In this document: one piece after another, positions 16,972 through 35,201 of the stretch
Layout of the letters: each line of letters starts with the position of its first letter
Position numbering within the stretch: the first letter of the stretch is position 1
Source of the DNA: a bacterium
Lineage (GTDB): Bacteria > Patescibacteriota > Minisyncoccia > Phycocordibacterales > SBAW01
DNA length: 64,000 nucleotides
Direction of reading: 5' to 3'
Assembly (NCBI GenBank): GCA_037139975.1
Contig: JBAXFJ010000001.1
Coordinates: forward strand, 48,586 to 112,585
Position numbers and translations under genes: made by a program
Notes under the pieces: model-generated
The model's input: only the letters and a program-made list of their open reading frames with translations
Database searches by the model: none
What the model was told of the DNA's origin: nothing

Positions 16972-16979
16972 AGAAGTGA

Positions 16980-18299: not shown

Positions 18300-18320
18300 A
18301 AAAGCCCCGGGGGGCTTTTT
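18300..18320. terminator. Palindromic GC hairpin flanked by A/T runs (bidirectional intrinsic terminator)
   Basis: AAAAGCCCCGGGGGGCTTTTT between the SIMPL gene stop (18380) and the secE start (18253). Confidence 0.5.
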
Positions 18321-18379
18321 ATAGCCCTATAGTACGGTTTTTGGTTGAGAAGTCAAGATACCCCAAACACTCTCCTAGA

Positions 18380-19225: not shown

Positions 19226-19249
19226 AGCGTGTTGATTACTACTAATATT

Positions 19250-19942
19250 TTATTTGATGGAGTTAATTGCAGTCATGAATTGTGCCTCGGGCAAAGCTCC
19301 TGAGAGAGCAACCATTTTCTTTGTCTTGGTGTTTATCACAATAGTGAATGGGGTTCCGTTGCCACCATTCGCCTCTGCCTCAGTGGTATCGGCGTCTATT
19401 TTACTTTGATATTTTGCAGACGCTATGCATGCGGTATATTTTACCGAGTCGGCCCCAAACTGTTTGGCGAGCGTTGCTGAATACTCGGGCGAAAGACTTG
19501 CCTGATTGGTAAACACCGCATCAGCATATTTCCAAAAACCTGTATTCCCTAATTGTTCGGCTATGCACTCGGACGCGAGCGCCGCTGGCCCCGCGTTGGG
19601 GTGGATGCTCGTGAGTGGAAGCTGACGATAGACCCAGGCAATTTGCCCATTTGAGTTGTCAACAATCTTTTTAAGTGTTGGGTACACCATCGAGCAGTAC
19701 GGACACTGGAAGTCAGAAAACTCAACCAGCACAATCGACGCGTTCGGTGAACCGGTGATGTGGTCGCTTGCGGACACAGGGCGGATGTTGAGCGCGGTGG
19801 GTGAAGGCGCCGCGCCGCCAAGCGCCACGGCCCCTGTTGGCTGCGCTGGGTGCATGTTTGCAAAGACAATTGCACCCGCAACGATCACCCCTGCAATGAT
19901 AATAGAAACTGAAGGACTTAATTCAAGTTTTTTGACTGACAT
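19250..19942 (-). CDS. Membrane-anchored DsbA-family thiol:disulfide oxidoreductase
   Basis: CPYC active site within a thioredoxin fold. N-terminal TM helix. Confidence 0.75.
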   Translation of the reverse strand: MSVKKLELSPSVSIIIAGVIVAGAIVFANMHPAQPTGAVALGGAAPSPTALNIRPVSASDHITGSPNASIVLVEFSDFQCPYCSMVYPTLKKIVDNSNGQIAWVYRQLPLTSIHPNAGPAALASECIAEQLGNTGFWKYADAVFTNQASLSPEYSATLAKQFGADSVKYTACIASAKYQSKIDADTTEAEANGGNGTPFTIVINTKTKKMVALSGALPEAQFMTAINSIK

Positions 19943-19983
19943 GCACTCAGTATAGCATCTTTCTTTTTTCTGCTATATTGTGA

Positions 19984-20409
19984 GTGCGCATGTTACAAGA
20001 ATTTAAACAGTTTTTGCTCCGAGGCAATGTGGTTGACCTGGCGGTGGGTGTTGTGGTCGGCGCGGCGTTTGGTGCAGTGGTGACCGCCCTTGTGGCCGAC
20101 CTCCTTACCCCTTCTATCGCCGCCATAGCAAAAGTGCCCGACTTTGGCGGCCTAAGCTTTACCCTTAACGGCAGCAAGTTTATGCTGGGGCACCTCATCA
20201 ACGCGCTCGTCTCATTCCTGCTTGTTGCATTCGCTGTCTTCTTTTTTATCGTCAAACCTATGAACTTGCTCGTGGGCCGAAGCCACACCGAAGCCCCCGC
20301 CGACCCCACCACAAAAAAGTGCTCCGAGTGCTTAAGCGAAATCCCCATCGCCGCAACACGTTGTGCCTATTGCACCCAAGCAGTCAAAGAAAGTAGCTCT
20401 GCTATTTAA
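19984..20409 (+). CDS. mscL: Large-conductance mechanosensitive channel
   Basis: MLQEFKQFLLRGNVVDLAVGVVVGAAFGAVVTALVADLL is the canonical MscL TM1. Confidence 0.9.
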   Translation: MRMLQEFKQFLLRGNVVDLAVGVVVGAAFGAVVTALVADLLTPSIAAIAKVPDFGGLSFTLNGSKFMLGHLINALVSFLLVAFAVFFFIVKPMNLLVGRSHTEAPADPTTKKCSECLSEIPIAATRCAYCTQAVKESSSAI

Positions 20410-23877: not shown

Positions 23878-24003
23878 CTCTTCCCCCGAAACGTTTCAGT
23901 CGCAGGGGCGACATAGAAACGCTTCTCCTCCAGAGCCGGCACGTTTGCTTCACCCTATCGGCGCAAACGTTGCTTTCGATTCCCTAACAACGCTCGCGTT
24001 GCG

Positions 24004-24034
24004 AAACAGCCCGACCAAAAGGCCGGGCTGTTTT
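24004..24034. terminator. 13-bp stem hairpin with AAAA loop and T-run, immediately 3' of tRNA-His
   Basis: AAACAGCCCGaCCAAAAGGcCGGGCTGTTTT. Confidence 0.5.
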
Positions 24035-24041
24035 ATCACCG

Positions 24042-24116
24042 TGGGTGGCTACAGGGAATCGAACCCTGATCGAGAGCTCCACAAGCTCCAGTGTTGACCG
24101 TTACACCATAGCCACC
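24042..24116 (-). tRNA. tRNA-His (anticodon GTG) with encoded G-1
   Basis: Manual fold: 8-bp acceptor stem including G-1:C73, U8, D-stem GTGT/ACAC, anticodon loop TTGTGGA, T-loop TTCGATT. CCA is only partly encoded. Confidence 0.85.
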
Positions 24117-24193
24117 ATATTACTTAGACCCCTCATGTCACACCCGCCCACCATATATACACGCTTACACTAGCACAAGAGCACTTTAGCAGA

Positions 24194-25239
24194 TTAGGGG
24201 TGAAAGAAAAAGGCGACCGCGATGATAGCGTATGCGATGAGCAGCTGCGCGCCCTCGAGCCAATTACTCTCGCCGTCGGCGACGACGAGGTTGACCATGA
24301 GCACCGAGAGGACAATCGCGATGAGCTCGAATATATTGAACACTAAGTTCATGGGGCTGTGGAAAAAGAGCGAGATGATGACGAGCAACGGAGCGACCAG
24401 CATCGCGATTTGCGTTGCCGAGCCGATGGTGATATTGAGCGCCAAGTCCATTCGATTTTTGAGCGCGACCGTGATAGCCGAAGCGTGCTCGGCGGCGTTG
24501 CCGATAATAGCTATAAAAATGACACCGACAAAAAGCTCGGTCCAGCCGAGCTGGAGCACCAGCGGCTCGATGGCGCCGACCAAGATTTCGCTCACCCACG
24601 AAACAAGAAGTGTCGCGACAAGGAGCGTGAGGACTGAGCGCAGCACGCTCCACCTTGGTTCATACTTCCCCACCTCTTCGGTGTAGAGGTGTTTGTGCGT
24701 GCGGAGCGAGAAGAAAAGCCCGGCCAGGTACATGAGGATGAGCGCGCATGAAACCCAAAGGCTTAGGTGCTCAATAATGCGCGTGCCAGCAGTAGGCGCA
24801 GTGAGCAAGAATATCGCCGGCATCACGAGCGCGATGACCGCCAAGAAGAGCGTCGAGCCACCCGCCACCGCGCCTGTTTTATTAAACGACTGCTTCTCGC
24901 GCTTCCAGCCGCCGGCAAACATCGCAAAACCAAGAACCAAGAGCAGGTTGCCGATTATCGAGCCGGTTATCGACGCTTTTACAACTTCAATCAATCCCGC
25001 CCGCAGGGCAAAGATGCCGATAATGAGTTCGGTAGCGTTACCAAACGTGGCGTTGAGGAGGCCACCAAGCGCGGAGTTTGTGCGCGAGGAGAGCTCCTCG
25101 GTTGCCTCGCCAATAAACTTGGCCAGCGGCACAATAGCAAGTGCGCAGAGAAAGAAAACAATGGTGGGCGAGATATGTAAAAAATGCGCCCCAATGGCGA
25201 CGGGCACAAACACAAGCAGGGCGAGAAAGAAATTTTGCA
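24194..25239 (-). CDS. cax: Ca2+/H+ antiporter (CaCA family)
   Basis: GNATELIIGIFALRAGLIEVVKASITGSIIGNLLLVLG and the second alpha-repeat GNAAEHASAITVALKNRMDLALNITIGSATQI. The start probably lies at MQNFFLALLVF; the track ORF begins at the GTG at 25336. My own count of the A-run near 25256 differs from the track by 1 nt, so the start is approximate. Confidence 0.8.
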
Positions 25240-25266
25240 TGGGGTAACTATAGCGCAAAAATATGT

Positions 25267-25285
25267 GTGCCCGGGAGAGGACTCG
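25267..25285 (-). repeat. 19-nt fragment identical to the 3' end of tRNA-Leu (putative distal att repeat)
   Basis: gtgcccgggagaggactcg matches 29680..29698 within tRNA-Leu, in the same orientation and 4.4 kb away. Confidence 0.6.
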
Positions 25286-25351
25286 GTCACAGATACTTTC
25301 TCGGCTCAGAAATTTCTGCGACCCCGCCTCAGTCACCTTCGCTCCTTCCGG
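25285..25351 (-). promoter_or_regulatory. Conserved intergenic module, copy a (upstream of cax)
   Basis: GGTCACA(A/G)AT - palindrome - TTCGCGACCCC..CTC... - TCGCTCC..CCGG. Copies b and c are at 31172 and 31391. Confidence 0.4.
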
Positions 25352-25366
25352 CCTTCGAGTCCTACG

Positions 25367-25414
25367 ACCAAAAAGTTAAAACCGGCACAAGGCCGGTTCT
25401 CAACTTTTCGGTGC
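25367..25414 (-). terminator. Copy of the tRNA-Leu trailer hairpin (AACCGGC-acaag-GCCGGTT plus T-run)
   Basis: 48-nt identity with 29635..29682. Reads as a terminator on the minus strand. Confidence 0.5.
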
Positions 25415-25770
25415 TGTAATTATACACTTTGCGCGAACCTTTTTCGAGCGGAAACTGGACGAATGAACCGAAGCCCCACGCACTGGCGAGTACGCCAGCA
25501 ACCCCGAAAGAAAAAATACTCCTTGCATTTCTGATTTGGCGGGGGTGAAATTTTTCTTGAAAAAGGAAAGGGTGTTTTTCTTTCGGGGTTCTGCCCTCCA
25601 AGTATTCGGGCAGTGCGTGGGGCTTCAATACGGACTCGGCAAAGCGAAAATCTGTTTTTCTGGAGAAAAGGATTTTTCGCTTTGCCTCGACTGATTTTCC
25701 GCCCGCAGGAGGGGTCTGGGGAGGAATGCGGGCGGGAATCCCAATTCGCTTTTTCGGAAAATTTTCCGCC
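25415..25770 (+). repeat. Repeat X (356 bp), copy 1, with nested perfect palindromes
   Basis: Perfect inverted copy at 27261..27616. Internally GAAGCCCCACGCACTG...CAGTGCGTGGGGCTTC (16 bp) encloses AACCCCGAAAGAAAAA...TTTTTCTTTCGGGGTT (16 bp). Track ORF 25362..25628 lies inside it. Confidence 0.7.
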
Positions 25771-25772
25771 CT

Positions 25773-26459
25773 CTAAGAATTAGCAGAAATTTTTCTTGGA
25801 AAGAGTTTACAAAAAATAAGTCCGAAAATTAAACCAGATAAATGTCCCCAATTATCAATTTCAAATGAATCTAACGCCTTTTTGTTTTCAGCAAAGCTGA
25901 AAATCAAAAATAAAAAGATGATCATACCAAAACCTAGTAGATATTCTTTGAATGTTAATTTTGGTATGTCTAACAAGTAAGCAGCGGCTAAACCAAATAA
26001 TCCAGCGGAAGCTCCTGCTGATACCATTGGGTTAGAAAAGAAAAATATTGAAATTGATGAGAGTACTCCACTAAAAATAAAGATTGACAAAAAACGACCA
26101 GCTTTTACGTTTCTTTCATAAAGCGACAATATTCCCAAGAATGATAAATTTGTCCATAGATGTAATAAGTTAAGGTGTATAAAATTGTGTGTGATTGTTT
26201 GTACGAACCACCAAGGAGTAAACGTGTATAAATTATTTACACCTAAAATTACAAACCAATTTTCATTCAACTCATTAAAAGTTCCACTAGAAAGGACGAA
26301 GAAAGTAACGATCAAAAGTATACCCAACCAGAATGTTGCTTGAATTTTTTTGAAACTTTCCCAATAACCTGGTATTTTGGCTTGTAAATCGTTAGGACTG
26401 GGTCGTAAGAAAAAAAGAGTAATGGTCCATACAAGTATGGTTAATAAAAACAGCGTCAT
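25773..26459 (-). CDS. Rhomboid-family intramembrane serine protease
   Basis: Six-TM protein with a GASAGLFGL (GxSx) motif and NWGHLSGLIFG (catalytic His). Confidence 0.65.
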   Translation of the reverse strand: MTLFLLTILVWTITLFFLRPSPNDLQAKIPGYWESFKKIQATFWLGILLIVTFFVLSSGTFNELNENWFVILGVNNLYTFTPWWFVQTITHNFIHLNLLHLWTNLSFLGILSLYERNVKAGRFLSIFIFSGVLSSISIFFFSNPMVSAGASAGLFGLAAAYLLDIPKLTFKEYLLGFGMIIFLFLIFSFAENKKALDSFEIDNWGHLSGLIFGLIFCKLFPRKISANS

Positions 26460-26462
26460 ATT

Positions 26463-26906
26463 TTAAGAAGACTTAGAAAGTAGAAATTCTCTTGTCTTGT
26501 CATCTAATTTTGCGAGCTTCTCAACCCCCTTTAGTTGTGCGTTAAGAATAAGTTTTCTACCGTTAGAAAAAACTAATTGCAAAGGAGCTTGCAGAAATCC
26601 CTTGCCAAGTTTCATTTTTGAAATTTCAGCATAAGAGAAAAAATTGTATGTTTCTGGCTTACCCCATAAACTTAGTTTATGAAGATGCATGCCGTTATTT
26701 GTAACTCCAACATAATAGATTCGCATACCAAAAAACATAAACGGACCAATCAAAAAGAACCACCAAATTGGAGGTGTGTAAGACGCTTGGAAAAAACCAA
26801 TTAGTTCTTCTCCTTGATTAAGACGTGGCAAGATAATATCGCTTTTAATTTGTTCTTTAGTCATATTTTTTATTAGGTAATAATTAAATTTATTTCTTTT
26901 CGACAA
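26463..26906 (-). CDS. Hypothetical membrane-associated protein (bacterial PH-domain-like)
   Basis: 147 aa with a central hydrophobic hairpin (PPIWWFFLIGPFMFFGMRIYYVG). Confidence 0.45.
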   Translation of the reverse strand: MSKRNKFNYYLIKNMTKEQIKSDIILPRLNQGEELIGFFQASYTPPIWWFFLIGPFMFFGMRIYYVGVTNNGMHLHKLSLWGKPETYNFFSYAEISKMKLGKGFLQAPLQLVFSNGRKLILNAQLKGVEKLAKLDDKTREFLLSKSS

Positions 26907-26948
26907 CGCTATTCATAAGTCTACCCCCCCCCGACACTTTTGCAATAC

Positions 26949-27155
26949 TCATTTTATCAAATCGTCAACGCTAATCTCAAGGGCTTTCGCGACCTTTTTT
27001 AGTGTTTCTAGTGTCGGGTTTTTATTTTCTCCAGACTCCATTTTGATAAGCGTATTATTGGCGACATCGGCCAGTCTTGCCAACTTCTCTTGCGAAAGCC
27101 CTTTGGCTTCCCTTAATCGCTTTATATTGTTTGATAAATTTTGGCTTGTTGACAT
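26949..27155 (-). CDS. XRE-family helix-turn-helix transcriptional regulator
   Basis: IKRLREAKGLSQEKLARLADVANNTLIKMESGENKNPTLETLKKVAKAL is a classic Cro/C1-type HTH. 68 aa. Confidence 0.75.
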   Translation of the reverse strand: MSTSQNLSNNIKRLREAKGLSQEKLARLADVANNTLIKMESGENKNPTLETLKKVAKALEISVDDLIK

Positions 27156-27260
27156 ATTACCATTAAGAGATTAACATTATAGTAGAGGTATCCATTTACC
27201 TGTTACTACTATGATGTTACACCAAAATTTTAAACAAATCAATATGTGGAATCTTTTTGT

Positions 27261-27616
27261 GGCGGAAAATTTTCCGAAAAAGCGAATTGGGATTCCCGCC
27301 CGCATTCCTCCCCAGACCCCTCCTGCGGGCGGAAAATCAGTCGAGGCAAAGCGAAAAATCCTTTTCTCCAGAAAAACAGATTTTCGCTTTGCCGAGTCCG
27401 TATTGAAGCCCCACGCACTGCCCGAATACTTGGAGGGCAGAACCCCGAAAGAAAAACACCCTTTCCTTTTTCAAGAAAAATTTCACCCCCGCCAAATCAG
27501 AAATGCAAGGAGTATTTTTTCTTTCGGGGTTGCTGGCGTACTCGCCAGTGCGTGGGGCTTCGGTTCATTCGTCCAGTTTCCGCTCGAAAAAGGTTCGCGC
27601 AAAGTGTATAATTACA
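27261..27616 (-). repeat. Repeat X, copy 2 (inverted relative to copy 1)
   Basis: Reverse complement of 25415..25770. Contains track ORF 27211..27708. Confidence 0.7.
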
Positions 27617-27664
27617 GCACCGAAAAGTTGAGAACCGGCCTTGTGCCGGTTTTAACTTTTTGGT
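27617..27664 (+). terminator. Trailer hairpin copy 2 (inverted orientation), shared junction between repeats X and Y
   Basis: Reverse complement of the 48-nt core at 25367..25414 and 29635..29682. Confidence 0.5.
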
Positions 27665-27910
27665 GTCTGTATTGTACCAAACTCGCACCTATTTCCAAAA
27701 CAAAGTGAGGTAATGACTTCGCACGCTCCGCGTGCGTGGTGACTTGAAACTAAATCGTACGCTCGGATTCTGCGCGCCTCGTCCGCTCCCTGCGGTCGCG
27801 GGAGCAAAAACCAAAAATTTTCCTTCCTTAATTTTAGATTTTCGGCGGGGGGTGTGGGGGGAGCCGACAAAAAATGGAAAGGAAATTTTTGGTTTTGCTT
27901 CGCCGTTTCA
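27665..27910 (+). repeat. Repeat Y (about 246 bp), copy 1, highly structured
   Basis: Inverted copy at 29385..29634. Internal ~21-bp stem AAAACCAAAAATTTTCCTTCC / GGAAAGGAAATTTTTGGTTTT plus hairpins CGCACGC-TCCG-CGTGCG and GCTCCC-N9-GGGAGC. Confidence 0.7.
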
Positions 27911-28140
27911 GTCTCCGAAAAGAGCATCATTATTTTATCATATTTTGATTGCTCTTTTCTCCGCCCTCACGGCGAGACGAGGCGCTTCCTCTCAGCGTTT
28001 GGTGGTAGTTTGAAACTCTGTGTCTTCGGTGACTGGTGGTGATAAACCAAGAAAGCGGAACCTCGCCATACAAAATTCTTTAAGGAATGGCGAGGCACAA
28101 ATCTATATGTGCTTGACCCACCCTCCCGTTCGCGCACAAC

Positions 28141-28183
28141 AATCCCCGCCGTTTTTAGGAAAAATTATAAAACGGCGGGGATT
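28141..28183. terminator. 15-bp perfect-stem hairpin downstream of the pilin gene
   Basis: AATCCCCGCCGTTTT-taggaaaaattat-AAAACGGCGGGGATT. Confidence 0.5.
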
Positions 28184-28209
28184 GCTCCCTTGAAAACCGA
28201 AACTACTAA

Positions 28210-28716
28210 CTACCAAGAGCTACATGCAGGTTCTCCACTGCATATCATCCATGCCCATGTCGGACGAACGGGGTCATAAAACGCCTGTCCTGAACTCGGA
28301 AAACTTTCAGGTCCATTTGCATGCGAGAGTAATTTATAATTTGTTCCATTAGACTGGTAAAGAAATCCAGACCAGCCACTCGTGTCACCACTCGGATCAG
28401 CAGGTAAAACCGAAATATATGTCGGGGTCAATCCGGGAATATAAGCATTTGCACCGCTTGTGGTTCGACTTCCGCCGTTGGCGCTCAATCCATACCAAAC
28501 GCCACTTGTTGATGGATACGAATTATTACTGTCCAGATAAAGTTCAAGTGCTGTTTGTAGTTGTTTCAGCTCCGATTTACGATAAGCATCTCTAGCTTTC
28601 CCTCTTGCACTGTTTAAGCTCGCGAGAACAACACTTGAAAGTATTCCGATGATAGCAATGACGACAAGAAGTTCGATGAGTGTAAAACCTTTTGAATTGT
28701 TTTTTTGTAAAAACAT
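28210..28716 (-). CDS. Type IV pilin (prepilin with N-terminal methylation motif)
   Basis: KGFTLIELLVVIAIIGILSSVVLASL is the class III signal peptide / pilin N-terminus. Confidence 0.8.
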   Translation of the reverse strand: MFLQKNNSKGFTLIELLVVIAIIGILSSVVLASLNSARGKARDAYRKSELKQLQTALELYLDSNNSYPSTSGVWYGLSANGGSRTTSGANAYIPGLTPTYISVLPADPSGDTSGWSGFLYQSNGTNYKLLSHANGPESFPSSGQAFYDPVRPTWAWMICSGEPACSSW

Positions 28717-28726
28717 AATTGAAATA

Positions 28727-29068
28727 TTAAAATCGTTCCTGCAAGCGCGGCGGCGCGTTTTCAGGATAGATTATTTTTTGACCCGGAGGTGCTTCGAGTT
28801 TCGCTTTGCTTCCTCCGCCACTAAACAGAAAAATAATCACGACAATAATCGCCACCGCTACAAATCCAATCAAAACATAATTTGCCTGCTTTTCGTCTTT
28901 GATATATCCGCCGGAATACTTGATGACCCACTGAACTATTTTGGGCGTTGGCGTTTGAAAAGATCGAGGTCGTTGAAACTCCTCGCCCTCAAACACTATT
29001 TTCCCCGGTTCGTTGTTTTGGTCCATAACTTTATAAAAAGTGTTGTTGCAGATTTTAGTTTTCCACAA
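28727..29068 (-). CDS. Hypothetical single-TM membrane protein
   Basis: 113 aa with a C-terminal TM helix (VLIGFVAVAIIVVIIFLF). Confidence 0.45.
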   Translation of the reverse strand: MWKTKICNNTFYKVMDQNNEPGKIVFEGEEFQRPRSFQTPTPKIVQWVIKYSGGYIKDEKQANYVLIGFVAVAIIVVIIFLFSGGGSKAKLEAPPGQKIIYPENAPPRLQERF

Positions 29069-29116
29069 CTATTTTAATTGTATCACTTACGCCCCCCCCG
29101 CAAACGAAAAAGGGGG

Positions 29117-29323
29117 CTACTTCAACAACTTATCCACTGAAACGCCGAGCGCTTGCGCCAATCGTTCCAATTGCTGGATAGTGATGTTTTTCTTGCCATT
29201 CTCGATTGCACTCATATAACTTCTGTCCATATCTAACTTACGACAAATATCGCCTTGCGACATTTTACGGCGAAGCCGTATCTGTTTGATATTCTGTCCG
29301 AGTTTTTTGGAAATTTGAGCCAT
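29117..29323 (-). CDS. XRE-family helix-turn-helix transcriptional regulator
   Basis: IKQIRLRRKMSQGDICRKLDMDRSYMSAIENGKKNITIQQLERLAQAL. 68 aa; paralogous in architecture to 26949..27155. Confidence 0.75.
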   Translation of the reverse strand: MAQISKKLGQNIKQIRLRRKMSQGDICRKLDMDRSYMSAIENGKKNITIQQLERLAQALGVSVDKLLK

Positions 29324-29384
29324 ATTTTAGATATCCACAGTTTAGCAATTATTGCTTTTTTATTCCATATGGTATTATAGTTCC

Positions 29385-29634
29385 ATATGACAACGGCGAA
29401 GCAAAACCAAAAATTTCCTTTCCATTTTTTGTCGGCTCCCCCCACACCCCCCGCCGAAAATCTAAAATTAAGGAAGGAAAATTTTTGGTTTTTGCTCCCG
29501 CGACCGCAGGGAGCGGACGAGGCGCGCAGAATCCGAGCGTACGATTTAGTTTCAAGTCACCACGCACGCGGAGCGTGCGAAGTCATTACCTCACTTTGTT
29601 TTGGAAATAGGTGCGAGTTTGGTACAATACAGAC
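29385..29634 (-). repeat. Repeat Y, copy 2 (inverted)
   Basis: Reverse complement of 27665..27910. Confidence 0.7.
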
Positions 29635-29677
29635 ACCAAAAAGTTAAAACCGGCACAAGGCCGGTTCTCAACTTTTC
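29635..29677 (-). terminator. Intrinsic terminator directly 3' of tRNA-Leu (original copy of the trailer hairpin)
   Basis: On the minus strand: GCACC-gaaaagttgag-AACCGGC-cttgt-GCCGGTT-TTAACTTTTT. Confidence 0.55.
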
Positions 29678-29763
29678 GGTGCCCGGGAGAGGACTCGAAC
29701 CTCCACGCCCGTGAGGGCTTATCCACCTCAAGGATAAATGTCTACCAATTTCAACACCCGGGC
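29678..29763 (-). tRNA. tRNA-Leu (anticodon GAG), long variable arm
   Basis: Manual fold: acceptor GCCCGGG/CCCGGGC, anticodon stem TATCC/GGATA with loop TTGAGGT, variable stem CCC-tcac-GGG, T-loop TTCGAGT, discriminator A. Confidence 0.85.
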
Positions 29764-29774
29764 AACAGGTGTAA

Positions 29775-30296
29775 TTATGCCGCAACTTCCTCCGTTTGTG
29801 GAGCTTCAGTAGCGACGTCTACCTCTACTGCTGGCGCAGTATCCAAAATTTCATCTTCAATCAATGGAGCAACTTCGGCACCTTTCTTTGCAGATGGCGC
29901 CATCTGCACCGACTTGCGCATCGCGCGCTTGACCTCGCGAGTGGCTTTGGTGCGGATGAAATAGAGCTTGGCGCGACGCACCTCGGCACGGCGAAGGATC
30001 TCGATGGAGTCGATCATAGGAGAATAGAGCGGAAAAATCTTTTCAGTCCCGACGCCGCTGGCAACCTTGCGGACGGTAAACATCGAGCCGGCCTCGGTGC
30101 CGTGCTTGACCGCCAAGATGAGCCCCTCGAACGCCTGGGTGCGGGCACTCTTGGTCAACACCTCTTTTTTGTTGGCGCCTTTGGTCTTTTTGAGTTCAAC
30201 GATTTTCTGCCAGACACGCACGGTGTCGCCCGAGCGGAGCCCAAGGCCTGCGCGCTCTTTCATATCAATTGGCGTTGTTTGTATTGCTGATTTCAT
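29775..30296 (-). CDS. rplS: 50S ribosomal protein L19 with C-terminal acidic extension
   Basis: ...RSGDTVRVWQKIVE..., ...FTVRKVASGVGTEKIFPLYSPMIDSIEI... is a canonical L19 core. Confidence 0.9.
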   Translation of the reverse strand: MKSAIQTTPIDMKERAGLGLRSGDTVRVWQKIVELKKTKGANKKEVLTKSARTQAFEGLILAVKHGTEAGSMFTVRKVASGVGTEKIFPLYSPMIDSIEILRRAEVRRAKLYFIRTKATREVKRAMRKSVQMAPSAKKGAEVAPLIEDEILDTAPAVEVDVATEAPQTEEVAA

Positions 30297-30414
30297 TGCT
30301 TAGAGACTGTACCACAGAGCAAAGCACTACGCAAAACACAAACCTTCAGGAGTACAAAAATTTCCTGCTGATAAATTTTCTCAATCCTCGCGCCGACGCG
30401 CTCAGAAGCCTCCT

Positions 30415-31152
30415 TTAGGCTTGTTTTTGCTCCGACAAAATCGCTTCTGCTGTCACAAAATCGGCGGGCAAGGGCGCGGCAAACGTCACCGTTTTGCCTG
30501 TTTTTGGATGTGTCAGGGTTACCGACAATGCATGGAGCGCAAGACGTTTGAACCCAAGCAAAGAAGCGCGCCCAGGCGCATACAGCCGGTCGCACACAAC
30601 AGGGCGCTGCAAAGAAGCAAAGTGCACGCGGATCTGGTGCGTGCGGCCCGTCTTGGGGAAGACTTCCGCATAGGAGACTTCGGGCGAACGGGCGATGATG
30701 CGAAACGTTGTGAGCGCATCGCGCATCAGGCCGTGCGCGCTTTTGGCTTTGACTGAACGAGGACCTGAACCACCGCGGCTGCTGCCGATGGGCTTGTCGA
30801 TGATCCCACGGTCGTCTTTGATGTTGCCATACACAAACACGCGATAGGTTTTTTGCACTTCCCTGTCATGAAACTGTGCCTTCAAATTCTCGTATGACTC
30901 CTGCGTACGAGCAACCAAAAGCACGCCCGACGTCTCGCGGTCGATGCGGTGTACGATGCCCGGCCGCTGAATAACCACCCCCGATTCGAGCGTTTGCTCT
31001 TCCCCCACACCCTCGAGCTCGGGATATTTGGGCAGGAGCCAATCCACCAGCGTGGACTTGGGTGACCGCCCATCAGCATGAACGCTTAAGCCCGCAGGCT
31101 TGTCTATAACGATAAGCGAGTCGTCTTCAAAAAGGATTATTGGTTCGGGCAT
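30415..31152 (-). CDS. RluA-family pseudouridine synthase
   Basis: ...HRIDRETSGVLLVAR... contains the catalytic Asp motif. Confidence 0.85.
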   Translation of the reverse strand: MPEPIILFEDDSLIVIDKPAGLSVHADGRSPKSTLVDWLLPKYPELEGVGEEQTLESGVVIQRPGIVHRIDRETSGVLLVARTQESYENLKAQFHDREVQKTYRVFVYGNIKDDRGIIDKPIGSSRGGSGPRSVKAKSAHGLMRDALTTFRIIARSPEVSYAEVFPKTGRTHQIRVHFASLQRPVVCDRLYAPGRASLLGFKRLALHALSVTLTHPKTGKTVTFAAPLPADFVTAEAILSEQKQA

Positions 31153-31171
31153 AGAGGTGTTGGAGGGACTC

Positions 31172-31250
31172 GGTCACAAATAAATTTTCTGCAGAAAATT
31201 TTTCGCGACCCCGGCTCGCGGTCTCGCCTGCTGGCTCGACATCGCTCCGG
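31172..31250 (-). promoter_or_regulatory. Conserved intergenic module, copy b (between tRNA-Val and the rluA-like gene)
   Basis: GGTCACAAAT-AAATTTTCTGCAGAAAATTT-TTCGCGACCCCGGCTCGCGGT...CATCGCTCCGG. Confidence 0.4.
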
Positions 31251-31285
31251 CTTTCTCGCCCCTCGGATAAATGCTATCGCATTTG

Positions 31286-31358
31286 TGCGCGGTGAGGGGC
31301 TCGAACCCCCGACCTTCTCTGTGTAAAAGAGTTGCTCTACCAACTGAGCTAACCGCGC
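31286..31358 (-). tRNA. tRNA-Val (anticodon TAC)
   Basis: Manual fold: acceptor GCGCGGT/ACCGCGC, D-arm GCTC-AGTTGGTA-GAGC, anticodon loop TTTACAC, T-loop TTCGAGC. CCA is not encoded. Confidence 0.85.
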
Positions 31359-31390
31359 ATTATTGTTTGTTTTGTGCCTTTTGCACACTT

Positions 31391-31479
31391 GGTCACAAAT
31401 ACATTTCTGACGAAATGTTTCGCGACCCCACCTCGCGGTTTTTGCCTTTCGCTACGCTCAAACAAAAACATCGCTCCGG
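31391..31479 (-). promoter_or_regulatory. Conserved intergenic module, copy c (between tRNA-Arg and tRNA-Val)
   Basis: GGTCACAAAT-ACATTTCTGACGAAATGT-TTCGCGACCCCACCTCGCGGT...CATCGCTCCGG. Confidence 0.4.
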
Positions 31480-31529
31480 TTCACAAACGCTAAAAAAGTA
31501 AACCAATTTACTTTTTCTTAACGCGTTTG

Positions 31530-31601
31530 TGCCCCCGCGAGGAATCGGACCTCGATAGCCGGCTTAGAAGTCCGGAGTTCTATCCATTAAACTACAGGGG
31601 C
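31530..31601 (-). tRNA. tRNA-Arg (anticodon TCT)
   Basis: Manual fold: acceptor GCCCCTG/CGGGGGC (U6-G67), anticodon loop CTTCTAA, T-arm CGAGG-TCCGATT-CCTCG. Confidence 0.8.
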
Positions 31602-31645
31602 GACTCTGGGGGCCTGCAGGTGTACAATACCATCACAACCCAATT

Positions 31646-32143
31646 ATGGCTACTTTTCTCAAACAAAAATATTGGCACGAGCTTTTTGAAGCGGGCGTTG
31701 CCTTTAAAGCACTCAACAGCGTGTGGGAGGTGCTGGGCGGCGTCTTTTTGCTCACCCGCCTGCACTTTTGGTTTACGCACCTGGTTGTCCACATCAGTAA
31801 CTCAGAATTCCTCGGCGAGCACGGCGACTTTTTGTCGCGCCTTCTAACCACTCAAGTGTCACACCTCGCGGCCGACTCAACACGTCTCTTTGTCGGTCTG
31901 TACCTCCTCTTCCACGGACTCATGAATGCTTTTTTGGCCTTTAACCTCTACCGCAATCGCCTGTGGTCGTACCCTGTCTCGATTGCCTTCACCTCACTTT
32001 TTCTTGTGTACCAAACATATCGACTGTTCCACACCCATTCCCCACTCCTGCTTTTCATCACCGTGCTCGATGTATTCTTCATCATCCTCACCTGGCATGA
32101 GTGGCAGTTTCAGAAACAAAAAGTAACGAGCAAAGAGAGTTGA
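31646..32143 (+). CDS. Hypothetical 4-TM membrane protein (DUF2127-like)
   Basis: 165 aa with four hydrophobic helices. Confidence 0.5.
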   Translation: MATFLKQKYWHELFEAGVAFKALNSVWEVLGGVFLLTRLHFWFTHLVVHISNSEFLGEHGDFLSRLLTTQVSHLAADSTRLFVGLYLLFHGLMNAFLAFNLYRNRLWSYPVSIAFTSLFLVYQTYRLFHTHSPLLLFITVLDVFFIILTWHEWQFQKQKVTSKES

Positions 32144-32149
32144 GTGACT

Positions 32150-32542
32150 TTAATGCGCCTGTGAGCCCGTGGGGGCATTTGATTCAAAAAGATAGAGAGG
32201 TTCGAAGCCGCCTTCGGGTAGCGGCTCGCCACCACTGGCCAGGATCATTGCCCGACTTTCAAGACCCATCATCGAGCGGGGCGCGAGGTTGGTTGCAAAT
32301 GCACATTTTTTACCCACCAACACCGTGGTATCGGGAAAATGCTTGGCGATGCCTGAAATTACCTGCCGCTCTTCGCTTCCAAAATCTACTTTAAGTTTTA
32401 AAAGTTTTTCCGAACCCTCCACTGGTTCGACAGAAAGAATCTCGCCCACGCGAATTTCTACTTTTTTAAAATCATCAATAGATATGTATGATGTTTTGGG
32501 CGTCTCTTCTTTCTGAATTTCTTTTTGTATTTCTTCTTCCAT
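32150..32542 (-). CDS. csaA: tRNA-binding protein (CsaA / EMAP-like OB-fold domain)
   Basis: ...IDDFKKVEIRVGEILSVEPVEGSEKLLKLKVDFGSEERQVISGIAKHF... matches the tRNA-binding arm family. Confidence 0.7.
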   Translation of the reverse strand: MEEEIQKEIQKEETPKTSYISIDDFKKVEIRVGEILSVEPVEGSEKLLKLKVDFGSEERQVISGIAKHFPDTTVLVGKKCAFATNLAPRSMMGLESRAMILASGGEPLPEGGFEPLYLFESNAPTGSQAH

Positions 32543-32596
32543 ATTTGTTTTGGTTTTAAAGGCGACTCCTCAGCTTTGGGAGGTGTTGCCTTGATT

Positions 32597-33022
32597 CTAG
32601 CTGTTTCTTTGGTTTCGGTCGAGATAACTCTGCAAAATTAGTGCCGCAGCAGAGGCATCGAGCTTTACATGTGATGGGTTTTCTTTTCTTGACCCGTCGG
32701 GTGCAAACTGCCGGGCCGCAGCCATGCTCGTCAAAAATTCTTTTTCATACACAACTGGAACACCTGCAAGCTCTGGTAAATTTTCAAGACTTTTTTTAAA
32801 CTCAGCAACCTTTTCCATCACCGTGTTTGCTTCGCCCTGGAAGTTGTGCGACTCGCCCACCACCACTTGCCCCACCCCCTCTTTTTTTACAATATCCACA
32901 ATCTCCTCAAGCGCACTTGGCCCCGCCTTCACCGTGCTGTGAGGAAACGCAAGCGTCCCCGTCTCATCTGAGACAGCCACACCGATGCGCTTTGTGCCAA
33001 AGTCTATACCAAGGGATTTCAT
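32597..33022 (-). CDS. ruvX: Holliday-junction resolvase-like RNase H-fold protein RuvX/YqgF
   Basis: MKSLGIDFGTKRIGVAVSDETGTLAFP is the canonical YqgF N-terminus. Confidence 0.85.
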   Translation of the reverse strand: MKSLGIDFGTKRIGVAVSDETGTLAFPHSTVKAGPSALEEIVDIVKKEGVGQVVVGESHNFQGEANTVMEKVAEFKKSLENLPELAGVPVVYEKEFLTSMAAARQFAPDGSRKENPSHVKLDASAAALILQSYLDRNQRNS

Positions 33023-33023
33023 G

Positions 33024-33110
33024 GGCGGAGGAGGTGAGATTCGAACTCACGGTACCTTGCGGCACTCCTGTTTTCAAGACAGGTGCACTAAACCACTATG
33101 CGACTCCTCC
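33024..33110 (-). tRNA. tRNA-Ser (anticodon TGA), long variable arm
   Basis: Manual fold: acceptor GGAGGAG/CTCCTCC, anticodon stem CCTGT/ACAGG with loop CTTGAAA, T-arm GTGAG-TTCGAAT-CTCAC, discriminator G. Confidence 0.85.
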
Positions 33111-33183
33111 AATAAAACACACAATACACTTTTTATGTGCTGCGTGCCACATCCATTCGAGAATTTACTTGTATACTAAAGCT

Positions 33184-33648
33184 ATGGCAGATGGGACTAT
33201 TTCCTGGCAGGTAGCAACACACACGCACTATGAACGCTCGCCCGACTGGTATTGGACACTCGGCGTTGTGGCAGTGGTGGGTGCGGGCATCTCCATCTAT
33301 TTCAGCAACATGCTTTTTGCGCTCATCTTGTTGATTGGCGCAAGCTCGGTCGGCATGCTCGTGGCGCGTGGACCGCGCGAACACCTCGTCTCGCTTGGTG
33401 CGCGCGGCGTTTCGATGGACGGAACACTCTACCCTTACGAATCGGTACAGTCGTTTTGGGTCGAACAGCACGTTGAGACCCCTCGACTTTTTTTGACCAC
33501 ATCAAACTTTCTACACCCACACATCATCATCCCGCTTGATTCCGTCGCACACGGTGAAGAAGTGCGTGGCCACCTCGCACAATATGCCGAAGAAACAGAG
33601 CGCCTCCCCCGCTTTAGCGAAGAGGTCGCAGAAATCTTCGGATTGTAG
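33184..33648 (+). CDS. Hypothetical 2-TM membrane protein
   Basis: Track ORF 32827..33648 trimmed to the Met at 33184 (MADGTISWQ...); the upstream part would overlap tRNA-Ser and ruvX. Confidence 0.45.
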   Translation: MADGTISWQVATHTHYERSPDWYWTLGVVAVVGAGISIYFSNMLFALILLIGASSVGMLVARGPREHLVSLGARGVSMDGTLYPYESVQSFWVEQHVETPRLFLTTSNFLHPHIIIPLDSVAHGEEVRGHLAQYAEETERLPRFSEEVAEIFGL

Positions 33649-33662
33649 TAGTGTGTTGATAC

Positions 33663-33737
33663 GCTCCCGTCGTTCAACGGATAGGACGCATCCTTGCGGA
33701 GGATGCAATGTAGGTTCGATTCCTGCCGGGAGCACCA
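33663..33737 (+). tRNA. tRNA-Arg (anticodon GCG), CCA encoded
   Basis: Manual fold: acceptor GCTCCCG/CGGGAGC, anticodon stem CATCC/GGATG with loop TTGCGGA, T-arm GTAGG-TTCGATT-CCTGC, 3' end ACCA. Confidence 0.8.
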
Positions 33738-33831
33738 AGTAGGAAATTGCAAGGTGGAGCTCGCCGCCGCGTCGGACGCGGCGGCTCGCGCGTACTGTGT
33801 TTTGGGCTCGAATTCAAATTGGCGATTTCGC
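33732..33831 (+). repeat. IR1-left: 100-bp perfect terminal inverted repeat, starting inside the tRNA-Arg 3' end
   Basis: gcaccaagtaggaaattgcaagg...ggcgatttcgc. Exact reverse complement at 35257..35356. Contains the GC palindrome GCCGCCGCG-tcgga-CGCGGCGGC. Confidence 0.8.
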
Positions 33832-35201
33832 AGAGAATGGTTCGCGCCGATGTTTTTCAGAAATGCTGTCATTCCGCTCAAGTCATTGTGGGAAAGCAGA
33901 TTCGCGGCTTGATTCAAGGACTTTACAAACTCACGAGCTGGTTCGAGCCAAGACACGCCCCTTTGTTCGATGTCGGTGATTTTTTCCTCAACCCTCACTT
34001 TTTGAGATATGAGGATATTCTTTTTGGCGGCGTACTCTGCTGTGGATAGCGCGTCGGCGAGGTAGAGGTTGAGCAACTTTTCTAGTTGGTTGTCCAGTGT
34101 GGTGAGTTCGGTTTTCAAGTTCTCCGCTTCTAGCTTTGCCTCCTCTTTTGCTTTCGTTTCCTCGCTCTCCAACGCCGCCAAAACTTTCTGCGTGTCTTGG
34201 CTCGATAAAGAAACTTTTTGCAGAAACGATTTGATTTGGTTTTCAAGCACATCTTCGCGCAAATATTTCTCGGTACATGCGCCTCGTTTTTTGGTACAGC
34301 GATAGTAGGTGTAGATTCCGCCGTTTCCTTTTGCATATTGCGCTGTAATGCTTGCTCCGCACGAGGCGCACTTCATTAGTCCGAGAAATGCGAATTTGTG
34401 CTTTTTCGTTTCGTGTGTGTTGCCGCGCTTGCTCATCATTTCTTGGCATAAATCAAAAAGTTTCTTTGCAACCAACGGCTCGTGAGTTCCCTCAAAGATT
34501 TCCGCCTTGTATCTCATCAGGCCGATGTAGAACGGATTTTGTAGAATATGCTGAACATTGCTTAATGACACGGGGTTGTTCGCGTTCGTTTTGAGGTCTT
34601 GTTCGGCGCACCAATTTGCGAGAGATTTTAGCGTGTAAGCTCCAGTGGAATACAGTTCGAATAGTTTTTGTACTTTTGGAGCGTTGATGCTGTCCACGTC
34701 AATTCCCCGTGTCTTGGGGTTGTTTATGTATCCCACCGGAGCCCAACCGGGCCAGACGCCGTTCCGTATCTTTTGCCGCAAACCTCGTTTTACGTTTTCT
34801 CGCAAATTGTCGGAGAAATATTTGCTCTGTCCAAAAGCAATATTCAGCATGAACAAACCTTGTGGCGTTGGTTCAAACCAGTGGGTCGGAAATTTGAGGG
34901 AACGAATCAAGCCGCGATCCACCATGTGGATTATCTTGCCCCCGTCTACTGAATTACGCGCGAGACGGTCGGGGTGCCAAGATATGATGCCGTCTGCTTT
35001 CCCACGCTCAATGAATGACAGCATTTCTGCGAACCCTGTTCGCCCGGGCTCTTTTGCGGTTTTCGCCTCGTAGAACGAGGCGACAATATCAAATTTTTCT
35101 TTGGCGGAATACGAAAAAAGCTCAGCAAGCTGAGCTTGGATGCTTAGGACTTGGCGGTCATCTTCTTCGGTGCTTTTCCTTGCGTAGATTACATATTTCA
35201 T
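33832..35201 (-). CDS. Large serine recombinase (resolvase/integrase family); 3' end uncertain
   Basis: MKYVIYARKSTEEDDRQVLSIQAQ... is the catalytic-Ser N-terminus (S10). A recombinase domain, Cys4 zinc ribbon (CASCGAS...CTKKRGAC) and coiled coil follow. The ORF stays open through IR1-left and the tRNA antisense down to 33435. Confidence 0.8.

Follow-up and report, generated by a model that had tools for sequence, protein, structure and literature searches.

Three intergenic spacers in the 64-kb window (the whole stretch of DNA that was analysed) share a conserved module with a central palindrome. What is this module: a promoter or regulatory site for the gene that follows, a structured RNA, or the end of an inserted element? 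We put at about one half the probability that the copies represent a non-autonomous mobile or duplicative element at tRNA 3' ends, with a core that folds as a single strand, and not a promoter.

The three copies in the window

The preliminary description had recorded three copies, and GGTCACARAT does occur exactly three times in the 64 kb, at 25285, 31172 and 31391 (copies A, B and C, respectively). A covariance model was made from these copies and the whole window was scanned with the filters off. Copies B, C and A scored 97, 94 and 74 bits, respectively, and the next-best score, 22.7 bits, was merely the reverse strand of copy B. There are thus exactly three copies in the window, far beyond chance. 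The original estimate of ~80 nt was too small: on the minus strand, the copies run from 25267 to 25363 (A), 31163 to 31264 (B) and 31385 to 31490 (C). The downstream sequence that was said to be shared by all three, TTCGCGACCCC, is exact in copies B and C, but copy A has TCTGCGACCCC.

ARAGORN, Rfam and repeat comparison confirmed the tRNA or tRNA-fragment neighbours. The order on the minus strand is tRNA-Arg(tct), copy C, tRNA-Val(tac), copy B and rluA. Copy A precedes cax (ATG at 25240) and follows a 48-nt piece identical to the tRNA-Leu(gag) trailer; it is degenerate, with most of hairpin P1 missing in the alignment. Three of the seven tRNAs in the window carry the element.

Read 5' to 3' on the tRNA-sense strand, the element comprises X', a junction (GAAAG-like), hairpin P1, GG, hairpin P2 and X. 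X' and X are the 5' and 3' strands of an outer helix, P0. The features are, in the order of the minus strand:

31529 to 31601, minus: tRNA-Arg(tct), upstream of copy C (ARAGORN, Rfam)
31482 to 31531, minus: hairpin 0 of copy C, CACAAACGC...GCGUUUGUG around a terminator-like hairpin (A-run, stem, U-run), its 5' arm beginning within the final bases of tRNA-Arg (sequence, folds)
31385 to 31490, minus: copy C, whole, with P1 at 31430-31480, the GG linker at 31428-31429, P2 at 31391-31427 and a weak P0 (covariance model, 94.3 bits; RNA fold z = -3.3 on the minus strand and -1.5 on the plus strand)
31285 to 31358, minus: tRNA-Val(tac), between copy C (upstream) and copy B (downstream) (ARAGORN, Rfam)
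31269 to 31284, minus: hairpin 0 of copy B, AAAUGC GAUA GCAUUU (sequence, folds)
31258 to 31264, minus: X' of copy B (GAGGGGC), 5' strand of P0, complementary to the 3' strand of the tRNA-Val T-stem and to X (31163-31169) (folds)
31211 to 31257, minus: junction GAGAAAG (31251-31257) and P1 (31211-31250) of copy B, the latter reading CCGG AG CG AU GUC..GAC CG CG AG CCGG (folds, alignment, covariation)
31172 to 31210, minus: P2 of copy B, base GGUCGCGAA / UUUGUGACC containing two G·U pairs, with one A bulged out and the distal stem variable (folds, covariation)
31163 to 31171, minus: X of copy B (GAGUCCCUC), 3' strand of P0, a decayed repeat of the tRNA-Val 3' part (GAGCCCCUC...), with the ATG of rluA next, at 31152 (repeat comparison, decay test)
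29678 to 29763, minus: tRNA-Leu(gag), intact, with its displaced 3' end at 25267-25284 (ARAGORN, direct repeat, empty site)
29635 to 29682, minus: 48-nt trailer hairpin, which is hairpin 0 of the tRNA-Leu element (repeat comparison)
25415 to 29634, no strand: 4.2-kb low-GC segment between the two 48-nt hairpins
25367 to 25414, minus: second, identical 48-nt trailer hairpin, directly preceding copy A in the RNA sense (repeat comparison)
25357 to 25363, minus: X' of copy A (AGGACUC), 5' strand of P0 (folds)
25285 to 25356, minus: core of copy A, with junction GAAGG, truncated P1 (25326-25356) and P2 (25285-25323) (covariance model, 74.4 bits; alignment)
25267 to 25284, minus: X of copy A, GAGUCCUCUCCCGGGCAC, whose 18 nt are identical to the tRNA-Leu(gag) 3' end from T-loop to discriminator, still attached to the native flank and cax (direct repeat; empty-site alignment with locus L001)

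The 4.2-kb segment is a secondary insertion that separates tRNA-Leu from copy A. No integrase or recombinase was found in this island.

The fold of the core

The two boxes that had been read as conserved flanks of the palindrome, GGTCACAAAT and TTCGCGACC, do not stand apart from it: as the base strands of the palindrome's own hairpin, P2, they come together through G·U pairs of the minus strand. Together with P1 and the outer helix P0, P2 is predicted to form a three-way junction of ~85-100 nt. A stem-loop under structural selection had been proposed, with covariation in the palindrome as the check, and 126 copies lend this strong support: 96% of cells were paired and there were 473 double-change cells compared with 122 ± 9 in shuffles, the P2 alignment being fitted to a model that already contained P2. 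Sliding the partners dropped pairing to 26-55%. The 3-bp helix P1a covaries though it lies outside the model (CG 57, GC 31, AU 11, UA 5).

The fold is specific to one strand. The two G·U pairs at the base of P2 occur in 123 and 112 of the 126 copies and form on the tRNA-sense strand only. Relative to shuffles, the minus (tRNA-sense) strand gave z = -4.1 and -3.3 folded as RNA and -2.8 and -2.8 folded as DNA; this is far better than shuffles, which the opposite strand was not as either. The base of P2 is GGUCGCG / UGUGACC, and that of P0 is tRNA-derived (GGGAUUC / GAAUCCC and variants). The arm spacing varies from 14 to 46 nt, with the hairpins kept by compensatory changes. P0 averages 4.76 bp, compared with 3.01 ± 0.13 bp when the flanks are permuted, and is longest at L116 (15 bp). 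An acceptor-like outer stem is not general, as its mean length (6.26 bp) did not differ significantly from that of permuted controls (5.97 ± 0.17 bp). A subset of loci (L018, L022, L027, L042, L070 and L116) does have the full acceptor-like stem plus P0, in a tRNA-like shape.

A search of the 64-kb window with Rfam 15 at the gathering score returned tRNAs only. At E <= 10, the region 31100-31620 gave nothing over the element except YrlA (13.5 bits, E = 8.8), a match that is carried by tRNA-Val and is at chance level. Several known RNA classes were also considered and rejected. For a T-box (ACCGCGAG..GGUGGGG), the boxes come in the wrong order, and no downstream gene is related to aminoacyl-tRNA. 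For a type II hammerhead, mapped by eye, there is GAAA at the P0/P1 junction but no CUGANGA box. The small self-cleaving ribozymes (hammerhead, twister, pistol, hatchet, HDV-like) had no Rfam core match, and group II intron domain 5 and the group I P/Q/R/S boxes had no match by eye.

Position behind tRNA genes and signs of insertion

Using a strict pattern, we found the element at at least 120 loci in species-representative genomes; the pattern picks canonical copies, and the statistics describe these. The same pattern had 0 matches in 2.9 million viral contigs. Among the matches listed, the carriers were nearly all Patescibacteria, plus a few Elusimicrobia-labelled bins, and the sequence of the element was conserved across many candidate phyla. 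Partial coverage of the literature on Patescibacteria/CPR RNAs and on tRNA-gene integration, which falls short of proving absence, gave no description of the element, and it looks undescribed.

Among the matches listed, 92/120 (77%) have the 3' end of a same-strand tRNA or tmRNA within 250 nt upstream, where 3% would be expected, and the element is always on the strand of the tRNA. The targets include ~30 anticodon types (among the matches listed) and also tmRNA, and a few loci lie near rRNA genes. One core subfamily was found behind at least 12 different tRNAs. Between tRNA and element, a terminator-like hairpin with a T-run occurred in 45/80 spacers compared with 1/80 in shuffles (matches listed). 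At the other end, P2 finishes in GUGACC and runs straight into X (GAAUCC.. or ACAA..), with no U-run.

In ~30 copies (about a third; matches listed), the tRNA 3' end recurs as an exact repeat of 12-36 nt that begins 0-2 nt past P2. These direct repeats span T-loop position 57/58 to the tRNA 3' end and, among the matches listed, are perfect over 17 nt in 16/84 copies. The sequence just 5' of the core (X') is complementary to this tRNA-end repeat (X). The displaced X decays more slowly in the part that forms P0, with mismatches at 29/168 positions compared with 66/189 elsewhere, in an ungapped comparison where indels inflate the distal mismatches.

Relatives provide empty sites. At L001, an identical tRNA-Leu(gag) directly abuts the flank, followed by cax, that in the window comes after the displaced 18-nt X of copy A (25267-25284); the insertion therefore took place in the lineage of the window. 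At L004, tRNA-Val abuts rluA. In the closest relatives, L001 and L002, the same genes are kept and the element is absent at these sites; it is present in L004 and, in L003, at other tRNAs. L002 retains a short GGGCA repeat, which may be a scar, and presence and absence among the relatives could reflect losses rather than gains.

Other loci show variations on this arrangement. L084 has tandem copies, each with its own repeat, and at L003 two tandem copies run into a convergent SpoU gene. A 1.1-kb insertion at L024 carries two tRNAs and two ORFs and has the element at its end. At L027, CCA is found on the displaced X and not in the tRNA gene. Displaced tRNA tails and pseudo-ORFs also mislead annotation, and several gene callers place ORFs over the element (e.g. 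L003, 1686-1949).

At its start, the insert brings a substitute for the tRNA 3' end (X), which leaves the tRNA intact. A hairpin (often terminator-like) usually comes next, and the insert closes with X' and the folded core. The original tRNA 3' end (X) follows immediately after the core and pairs with X' as P0, closing the junction. In our reading, small protein-less insertions have probably entered tRNA and tmRNA genes in their 3' part, and the element is the right-hand end of each. A fragment of a known repeat or an IS end had been named as an outcome that would count against the original interpretation; the module does appear to be the conserved end of an insertion element that occurs repeatedly, though this element is not among the known ones.

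A possible route to this arrangement is as follows. The core would act as a folded single strand, which may be ssDNA or RNA (the two are indistinguishable from sequence). The molecule, folded through X':X, would recombine with the tRNA gene inside X to give the order X...X'-core-X, and the recombining enzyme would be supplied in trans. Several points weigh against this reading. There was no candidate for the trans-acting enzyme among 618 ORFs near ~110 copies: all-versus-all BLAST of ORFs within 3.5 kb found no recombinase, reverse-transcriptase or transposase clusters, and the clusters that were found reflect housekeeping synteny (L19, RluA, SmpB, CCA-adding enzyme). Nor was an excised or free form of the element seen. 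Each of the ~30 tRNA targets would require its own newly derived X and X'. Finally, long conservation of the core over very divergent lineages is also expected of a functional host RNA.

Comparison with known systems and other explanations

The order X...X'-core-X would parallel that of the ssDNA attP of phage CTX and of integron attC. When CTX integrates, its ssDNA and the target dsDNA exchange a single pair of strands (PMC3442271), and integron integrases recombine single- with double-stranded partners (PMC4792948). The attP(+) of CTX (which uses host XerCD) and attC have a strand-asymmetric, imperfect hairpin and two inverted target-like arms, ~90 nt apart, whose pairing is confined to one strand. 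The element shares both features in its predicted fold. As would suit a folded single-strand site, X' is complementary to X, and folding is limited to the tRNA-sense strand whether it is treated as RNA or as DNA. Like CTX, the element has no recombinase of its own, and the integrated order is the same: target repeat ... inverse arm - loop - target repeat. Unlike either system, its target is a tRNA gene and not dif or attI. Compared with attC the design is reversed, with the loop conserved and the stem derived from the target, and there are no R''/R' cores (RYYYAAC / GTTRRRY), no cassette arrays and no intI by the element.

The omega RNA of IS200/IS605 and the bridge RNA of IS110 also join a structured scaffold at the element end to a short target-matching stretch. 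However, the scaffold here is unrelated (no Rfam match) and the target-matching segment is paired in cis with X'. TnpB, IscB and the IS110 recombinase were absent in or near the element (618 ORFs, ~110 copies).

With MITEs and REP/BIME sequences, the element shares being short, protein-less, multi-copy, intergenic, hairpin-forming and polymorphic in presence between relatives. It differs from MITEs in lacking terminal inverted repeats (the insert has a tRNA 3' end on its left and GUGACC on its right), and its flanking repeats are 12-36 nt, variable and tRNA-derived instead of a fixed short target duplication. REP/BIME units are imperfect palindromes of ~35 nt with a GTAG-type 5' tetranucleotide, scattered after protein-coding genes. 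The element has another architecture and sequence, and 77% of copies are directly behind a tRNA or tmRNA (matches listed). Unlike both groups, its sequence is conserved over phylum-level distances.

Much of the same evidence would be accounted for by a family of non-coding RNA genes of the host, whose transcripts are made together with the tRNA or after it and freed by the tRNA-processing enzymes, but we consider this rather unlikely. P0, in copying the T-stem/acceptor 'top half', would serve as a handle for RNase P, RNase Z or the CCA enzyme; the three-way junction would bind a conserved protein or be catalytic; and the direct repeats would be by-products of new copies arising beside tRNAs. 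This fits the constant strand (matches listed), the sequence conservation over many candidate phyla, the preferential maintenance of the P0 part of X, and the conserved G·U pairs, purine-rich junctions (GAAAG, GGA/GA, GG) and bulged A that are typical of functional RNAs. The six loci with a tRNA-like shape fit too, as does the displaced X at L027 that has the CCA its tRNA gene lacks. Adjacent or fused tRNA-like helices are known from non-coding RNAs with tRNA-like handles (mascRNA/MALAT1, plant tRNA-snoRNA, the Y-RNA-like YrlA), and in some copies P0 and the outer stem similarly imitate the acceptor/T-arm top half. However, the outer stem is not general, and the terminator-like hairpin, present in 45 of the 80 spacers, often comes ahead of the element, unlike in those RNAs. 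No Rfam family matches, and only some tRNAs carry the element. The closest relatives do not have it at the same tRNAs, and it must thus be dispensable at any given site.

Genomic islands are classically recognized by their integration into a tRNA or tmRNA gene, in its T-loop or at its 3' end, where the end of the tRNA recurs as a direct repeat. Could the copies be remnants of integrase-mediated islands or prophages, with the core as the attP arm beside attR? The core would then comprise integrase/IHF-type binding sites and a terminator, the rest of the island having been deleted. Islands and prophages of tRNA-targeting tyrosine integrases share with the element the T-loop or extreme 3'-end target, the supply of a replacement 3' end by the insert (the displaced end becoming the far-side direct repeat) and tandem arrays. 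The tmRNA cases, the empty site, and larger insertions that end in the element (1.1 kb at L024; the 4.2-kb segment at the tRNA-Leu of the window) also point this way. Nevertheless, we regard this origin as improbable. There is no integrase near any of the ~110 copies and there are no matches in the viral contigs. Random deletions would not yield the uniform architecture, usually 100-250 nt in total. Compensatory changes with an arm spacing of 14-46 nt fit folding, not protein sites on a duplex, and the conserved G·T asymmetry of the arms would be pointless in duplex DNA. A duplex attP also has no need of X'; a strand-specific, covarying three-way junction beside a target-complementary X' sets the element apart from these islands.

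A termination or processing signal of stable-RNA operons (an RNase III-type site or a protein-dependent terminator) would suit the location downstream of tRNA and tmRNA and, at a few loci, near rRNA genes, and P2 is a long perfect duplex; but an intrinsic terminator would have a U-run after P2, a separate terminator-like hairpin usually precedes the element, and the tRNA-end repeats, X', tandem copies and empty sites would be left unexplained, making this very unlikely.

The promoter or operator module suggested in the preliminary description, for which the 20-45 nt between each window copy and the next same-strand gene or tRNA might speak, is barely credible: among the matches listed, the next feature is convergent in 40/92 cases (43%) at distances from 0 to >1000 nt, so the element is not a promoter, and the constant neighbour is the upstream tRNA or tmRNA and not the downstream gene. 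The tandem copies at L003 face the convergent SpoU gene, the orthologous genes at L001, L002 and L004 do without the element, the -10-like TATAGT ahead of cax is part of the native flank (it is also in element-free L001), and a consensus scan of 24000-34000 found no sigma-70-like hexamer pair within the three copies.

Returning to insertion at tRNA 3' ends, a bolder formulation can be offered tentatively: the element may be a protein-less, self-targeting mobile nucleic acid of a new class or, as an equally novel alternative, a phylum-wide RNA family that mimics the tRNA top half. In the mobile variant, a ~90-nt three-way-junction core with its target-complementary arm X' could enter any tRNA or tmRNA gene, in the T-loop or at the 3' end, as folded ssDNA or RNA. 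It would use host enzymes or its own catalysis, and would preserve the gene by duplicating the tRNA tail.

The genomes of Patescibacteria are tiny and contain little non-coding DNA, and despite this the ~100-nt element accompanies a sizeable share of the tRNA and tmRNA genes. In metagenome-assembled genomes, a covariance model of the element would flag insertions in tRNA flanks. If it is an RNA, the element would rank among the most widespread unannotated structured RNAs of the superphylum. If it is mobile, it would target tRNA genes as a minimal element, with no need for a gene of its own, and would account for the remodelling of tRNA flanks in Patescibacteria. The target-complementary arm beside a conserved scaffold suggests that the choice of site may be guided by base pairing, which would be of interest for programmable insertion.

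Three copies of a folded element

Three copies of a short intergenic motif had been claimed in the preliminary description, and an exact-motif search and a covariance model, both run over the whole window, bore this out. With zero mismatches, GGTCACARAT occurs in the 64-kb window only at 25285, 31172 and 31391; two copies match TTCGCGACCCC perfectly, and the third differs from it at two positions. The covariance model, built from the three copies and run unfiltered, gave scores of 97, 94 and 74 bits, and the next-best match (22.7 bits) was the reverse strand of copy B. The window contains exactly three copies:

25267-25363, minus strand, copy A (most of P1 lost)
31163-31264, minus strand, copy B
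31385-31490, minus strand, copy C

The gene neighbourhood is as first described: the minus-strand order is tRNA-Arg(tct), copy C, tRNA-Val(tac), copy B and an RluA-family gene, and copy A lies ahead of the Na/Ca-exchanger (cax) gene.

The 'conserved flanks' and 'variable palindrome' of that description are real as sequences but are not separate parts; both belong to one hairpin (P2). On the minus strand its base pairs GGUCGCGAA with UUUGUGACC, including two G·U pairs whose plus-strand equivalents are A·C mismatches. RNA fold z values were -4.1 (copy B) and -3.3 (copy C) on the minus strand, compared with -1.3 and -1.5 on the plus strand, and DNA folding parameters gave the same strand asymmetry. 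A second hairpin (P1), 5' of P2, consists of a 3-bp helix (NNC/GNN), an internal loop (GGA/GA), GCG/CGC and a distal part of variable length. An arm 5' of this core (X') pairs with the sequence directly after P2 (X), and the resulting helix, P0, closes a three-way junction. The junction strands (GAAAG-like and GG) are conserved and purine-rich, as is a bulged A in P2.

The proposed structural selection on the stem-loop, for which covariation had been named as the check, was upheld. In 126 copies aligned to the first model, which already contained P2 when the P2 columns were aligned, the 22 tested pairs were 96% paired, compared with 77% in shuffles and 26-55% with the partners slid; both-side changes were seen in 19 of these pairs, and there were 473 double-change cells against 122 +/- 9 in shuffles. 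Of the two G·U pairs, one is retained in 123/126 copies and the other in 112/126; P2 pairs 8 and 9 and every distal pair covary freely. The P1a helix, which lies outside the model, also covaries (CG 57, GC 31, AU 11, UA 5). The structure of the element is under selection. In many copies the distal end of P2 (GAG CG ACGG CG AG; e.g. L009, L016, L042 and L097, where L numbers denote loci or contigs of other genomes) repeats the minimal P1 motif, GAG CGCG ACGG CGCG AG (L012, L017, L024). The element thus has a pair of similar GA-flanked stem-loops, and a single factor might bind at both.

Insertion at tRNA and tmRNA genes

One genome per species was scanned with the pattern CGCGAGNNGGGGTCGCGN{14,44}TGTGACC (~2 chance matches expected), which gave at least 120 loci in species-representative genomes; every statistic refers to copies that this single strict pattern picked out of 8-kb blocks of metagenome-assembled genomes. 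The matches listed are nearly all from Patescibacteria (Paceibacterota and many Parcubacteria 'Candidatus ...bacteria' groups), and include Berkel- and Falkowbacteria, bins labelled Saccharibacteria and one clear chance match (Nocardia). Five contigs from Elusimicrobia/Elusimicrobiota-labelled bins (L038, L053, L084, L107, L113) carry canonical copies; unless these contigs are mis-binned, the element is not confined to Patescibacteria. The same pattern had no match in 2.9 million viral contigs. Spurious ORFs, from gene callers as well as ORF lists, cover copies of the element (L003 1686-1949; window 31137-31388 and 25141-25419), so public records probably list it wrongly as hypothetical proteins.

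A same-strand tRNA or tmRNA 3' end lies no more than 250 nt upstream in 92 of the 120 listed copies with enough upstream sequence, the random-position expectation in these loci being 3%, and the upstream tRNAs represent ~30 anticodon types. Five apparent exceptions lie behind a tmRNA gene detected by Rfam only; the others include second tandem members, tRNAs missed by ARAGORN, and copy A, which a later insertion has separated from its tRNA. A few copies adjoin rRNA operons (23S/5S) and not tRNAs (L006 971-1045; L015 3594-3664, convergent with the 5S gene).

Right after P2 (offset 0-2), ~30 listed copies repeat 12-36 nt of the upstream tRNA exactly, from T-loop position 57/58 (GAAUCC...) to the tRNA 3' end, +/- 2 nt. 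Identity to the tRNA is at least 9/17 in 37/84 tRNA-linked copies and perfect in 16/84; the remaining copies ('class 2', P0 type UUGUG/ACAA) repeat the first trailer bases instead. After copy A, GAGUCCUCUCCCGGGCAC is the final 18 nt of tRNA-Leu(gag), 4.4 kb distant. The empty site is seen in L001, where the cax start comes 24 nt after a tRNA-Leu(gag) identical to that of the window. In the window the flank shared with L001 (..UAUAGUUA..AUG) comes after the displaced 18-mer, and the trailer of the intact tRNA-Leu(gag) differs from it. Only 10 nt separate tRNA-Val from rluA in L004; in the window the same genes are kept apart by copy B plus a degenerate tRNA-Val tail (GAGUCCCUC CAACACC). The tandem copies in L084 each have their own repeat, a 1.1-kb insert in L024 (two ORFs, two tRNA genes) ends in the element and then a tRNA-Arg(tct) tail, and in L124 the post-element tail comes from a tRNA other than the adjacent one. 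One core subfamily (e.g. minimal P1 GGAGCGCGACGGCGCGAG, P2 loop CAGCAG) recurs downstream of 12 or more different tRNAs and combines with either kind of P0. The tRNA-tail repeats, empty sites, tandems, L024, L124 and the shared subfamily demonstrate that the element arrives by insertion, at the T-loop or 3' end of tRNA/tmRNA genes, and that the insert carries a replacement tRNA tail, so that the tail is duplicated.

By its RluA protein, the window belongs to a Patescibacteria/Paceibacterota metagenome-assembled genome. The closest relatives examined (L001 and L002; RluA identity 77-79%) have no copy despite having kept the tRNA-Arg/tRNA-Val/rluA/L19/tRNA-Leu/cax synteny. The more remote L003 and L004 are copy-bearing: in L003 a tandem pair follows tRNA-Lys, two copies follow tRNA-Leu, and tRNA-Arg(gcg) is also occupied; L004 shares the site of copy C, tRNA-Arg(tct), and is occupied at tRNA-Arg(gcg) as well. 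In L027 (reverse strand, P2 at 1763-1806 in oriented coordinates) the displaced tRNA-Ser tail ends ...CUCUCUCCGCCA, with CCA, and the intact upstream gene reads ...CCGC then aaa, with no encoded CCA; this hints at a tail from a mature tRNA or another gene copy.

X' does not copy the 5' half of the T-arm but is reverse-complementary to the beginning of X:

P0 pairings (X' with X)
GGGAUUC with GAAUCCC
CAGGAAUC with GAUUCCUG
AGGACUC with GAGUCCU
15 bp in L116

The mean P0 length is 4.76 bp, compared with 3.01 +/- 0.13 when 3' flanks are swapped among copies. Imperfect repeats have 29/168 mismatches to the tRNA in the first eight positions (the P0 part) and 66/189 in the next nine, an ungapped comparison in which indels inflate the difference. 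In copy B the acceptor part has decayed while the P0 part persists; its C-to-U change leaves a G·U pair in place. P0 is not just a relic.

Other insertions at the same flanks

Window positions 25367-29682 hold two consecutive ~1.5-kb segments, each between perfect inverted repeats:

25367-25770 and 27261-27664, inverted repeat, 404 nt
27617-27907 and 29392-29682, inverted repeat, 291 nt

Every boundary carries a 48-nt tRNA-Leu trailer hairpin. Each segment encodes a 68-aa HTH_3 protein and a rhomboid protease or type IV pilin-like gene, has no recombinase, and has a GC content of 0.40-0.45 compared with ~0.52 in the surroundings. Invertible cassettes might explain this arrangement, as might an island or an error in MAG assembly. 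In L001 (916-1581) a 221-aa ORF between inverted tRNA-Val and rluA, with no Pfam match on record, has an HTH-like N-terminus and a motif (...LGIALYWGEGGK...) resembling LAGLIDADG homing endonucleases; it is a further insertion at the same tRNA flank. L003 has a MazE/PemK toxin-antitoxin pair between tRNA-Val and rluA (9404-9984) and, just after two tandem element copies, an island adjoining tRNA-His (11564-20380) with a large serine recombinase, Prim-Pol and methyltransferase. The same tRNA flanks are hot spots for insertion.

Mechanism and competing readings

The element combines a conserved, strand-specific fold with a target-complementary arm, and has no linked protein gene. We read it, with a probability of roughly 0.5, as a non-autonomous insertion element whose core would be a folded single strand (RNA or ssDNA) served by a hypothetical trans-acting enzyme. 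A molecule self-folded via X':X would recombine with the tRNA gene inside X, giving tRNA(X) - spacer - X' - core - X with the arms placed as observed; it is from this order that we infer such recombination. There are precedents in CTX phage, whose single-stranded attP is integrated by host XerCD (PMC3442271), and in integron attC hairpins, which are inserted as folded sites (PMC4792948). The element is like CTX attP and attC in arm topology and strand asymmetry, but unlike them in sequences, targets and known enzymes. The folding strand in the window is the lagging-strand template (elements on the minus strand, left of dnaA at ~54-55 kb, near which GC skew turns), which offers an opportunity for folding and proves nothing. 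By the overlapping contig L126, dnaA, dnaN, rnpA and yidC fall at ~52-56 kb of the window together with the cumulative GC-skew minimum, making ~53.9-55.3 kb the likely replication origin; PrgI-, TraC- and TraG-like type IV secretion genes are located at 61-64 kb.

That the copies are instead a host ncRNA family, released via tRNA-like handles, is possible but doubtful. A tRNA-like outer stem is present in some copies (L018, L022, L027, L042, L070, L116) and is not general, and simple co-transcription with the tRNA is weakened by a separate terminator-like hairpin with a T-run in 45/80 tRNA-element spacers, compared with 1/80 after shuffling. Loops of this hairpin 0, between tRNA and element, recur across genomes (CUGC in L084, L052, L107 and L066; GAAUACGUGGA in L012, L015 and L037), so it may be a conserved part of the insert, beyond a mere terminator. 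Descent from integrase-borne islands is unlikely: the element shares the target and tRNA-tail repeat of classical integrative islands but differs in lacking the integrase. There is no conserved protein neighbour, with integrase, transposase and reverse transcriptase absent among 618 nearby ORFs and from the window's 4.2-kb segment. A processing or termination signal is less probable still; no U-run follows P2, so the element is not an intrinsic terminator. The promoter or regulatory module for the next gene that was first suggested is scarcely credible, because the downstream feature of listed copies (same-strand ORF 41, convergent ORF 38, same-strand tRNA 11, convergent tRNA 2; 40 of 92 convergent) has no constant relation to the element.

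Among known repeats, a MITE was rejected, the element being without terminal repeats or a fixed target duplication, and so was a REP element. Rfam has no family for it, and no description was found in the literature searched.

The mobile-element and ncRNA readings are not exclusive, since a mobile element could exert its effect as RNA. The chance that the core is something categorically new is substantial, though below even; we rate the element as a tRNA-targeting insertion element, a known kind, in a new form.
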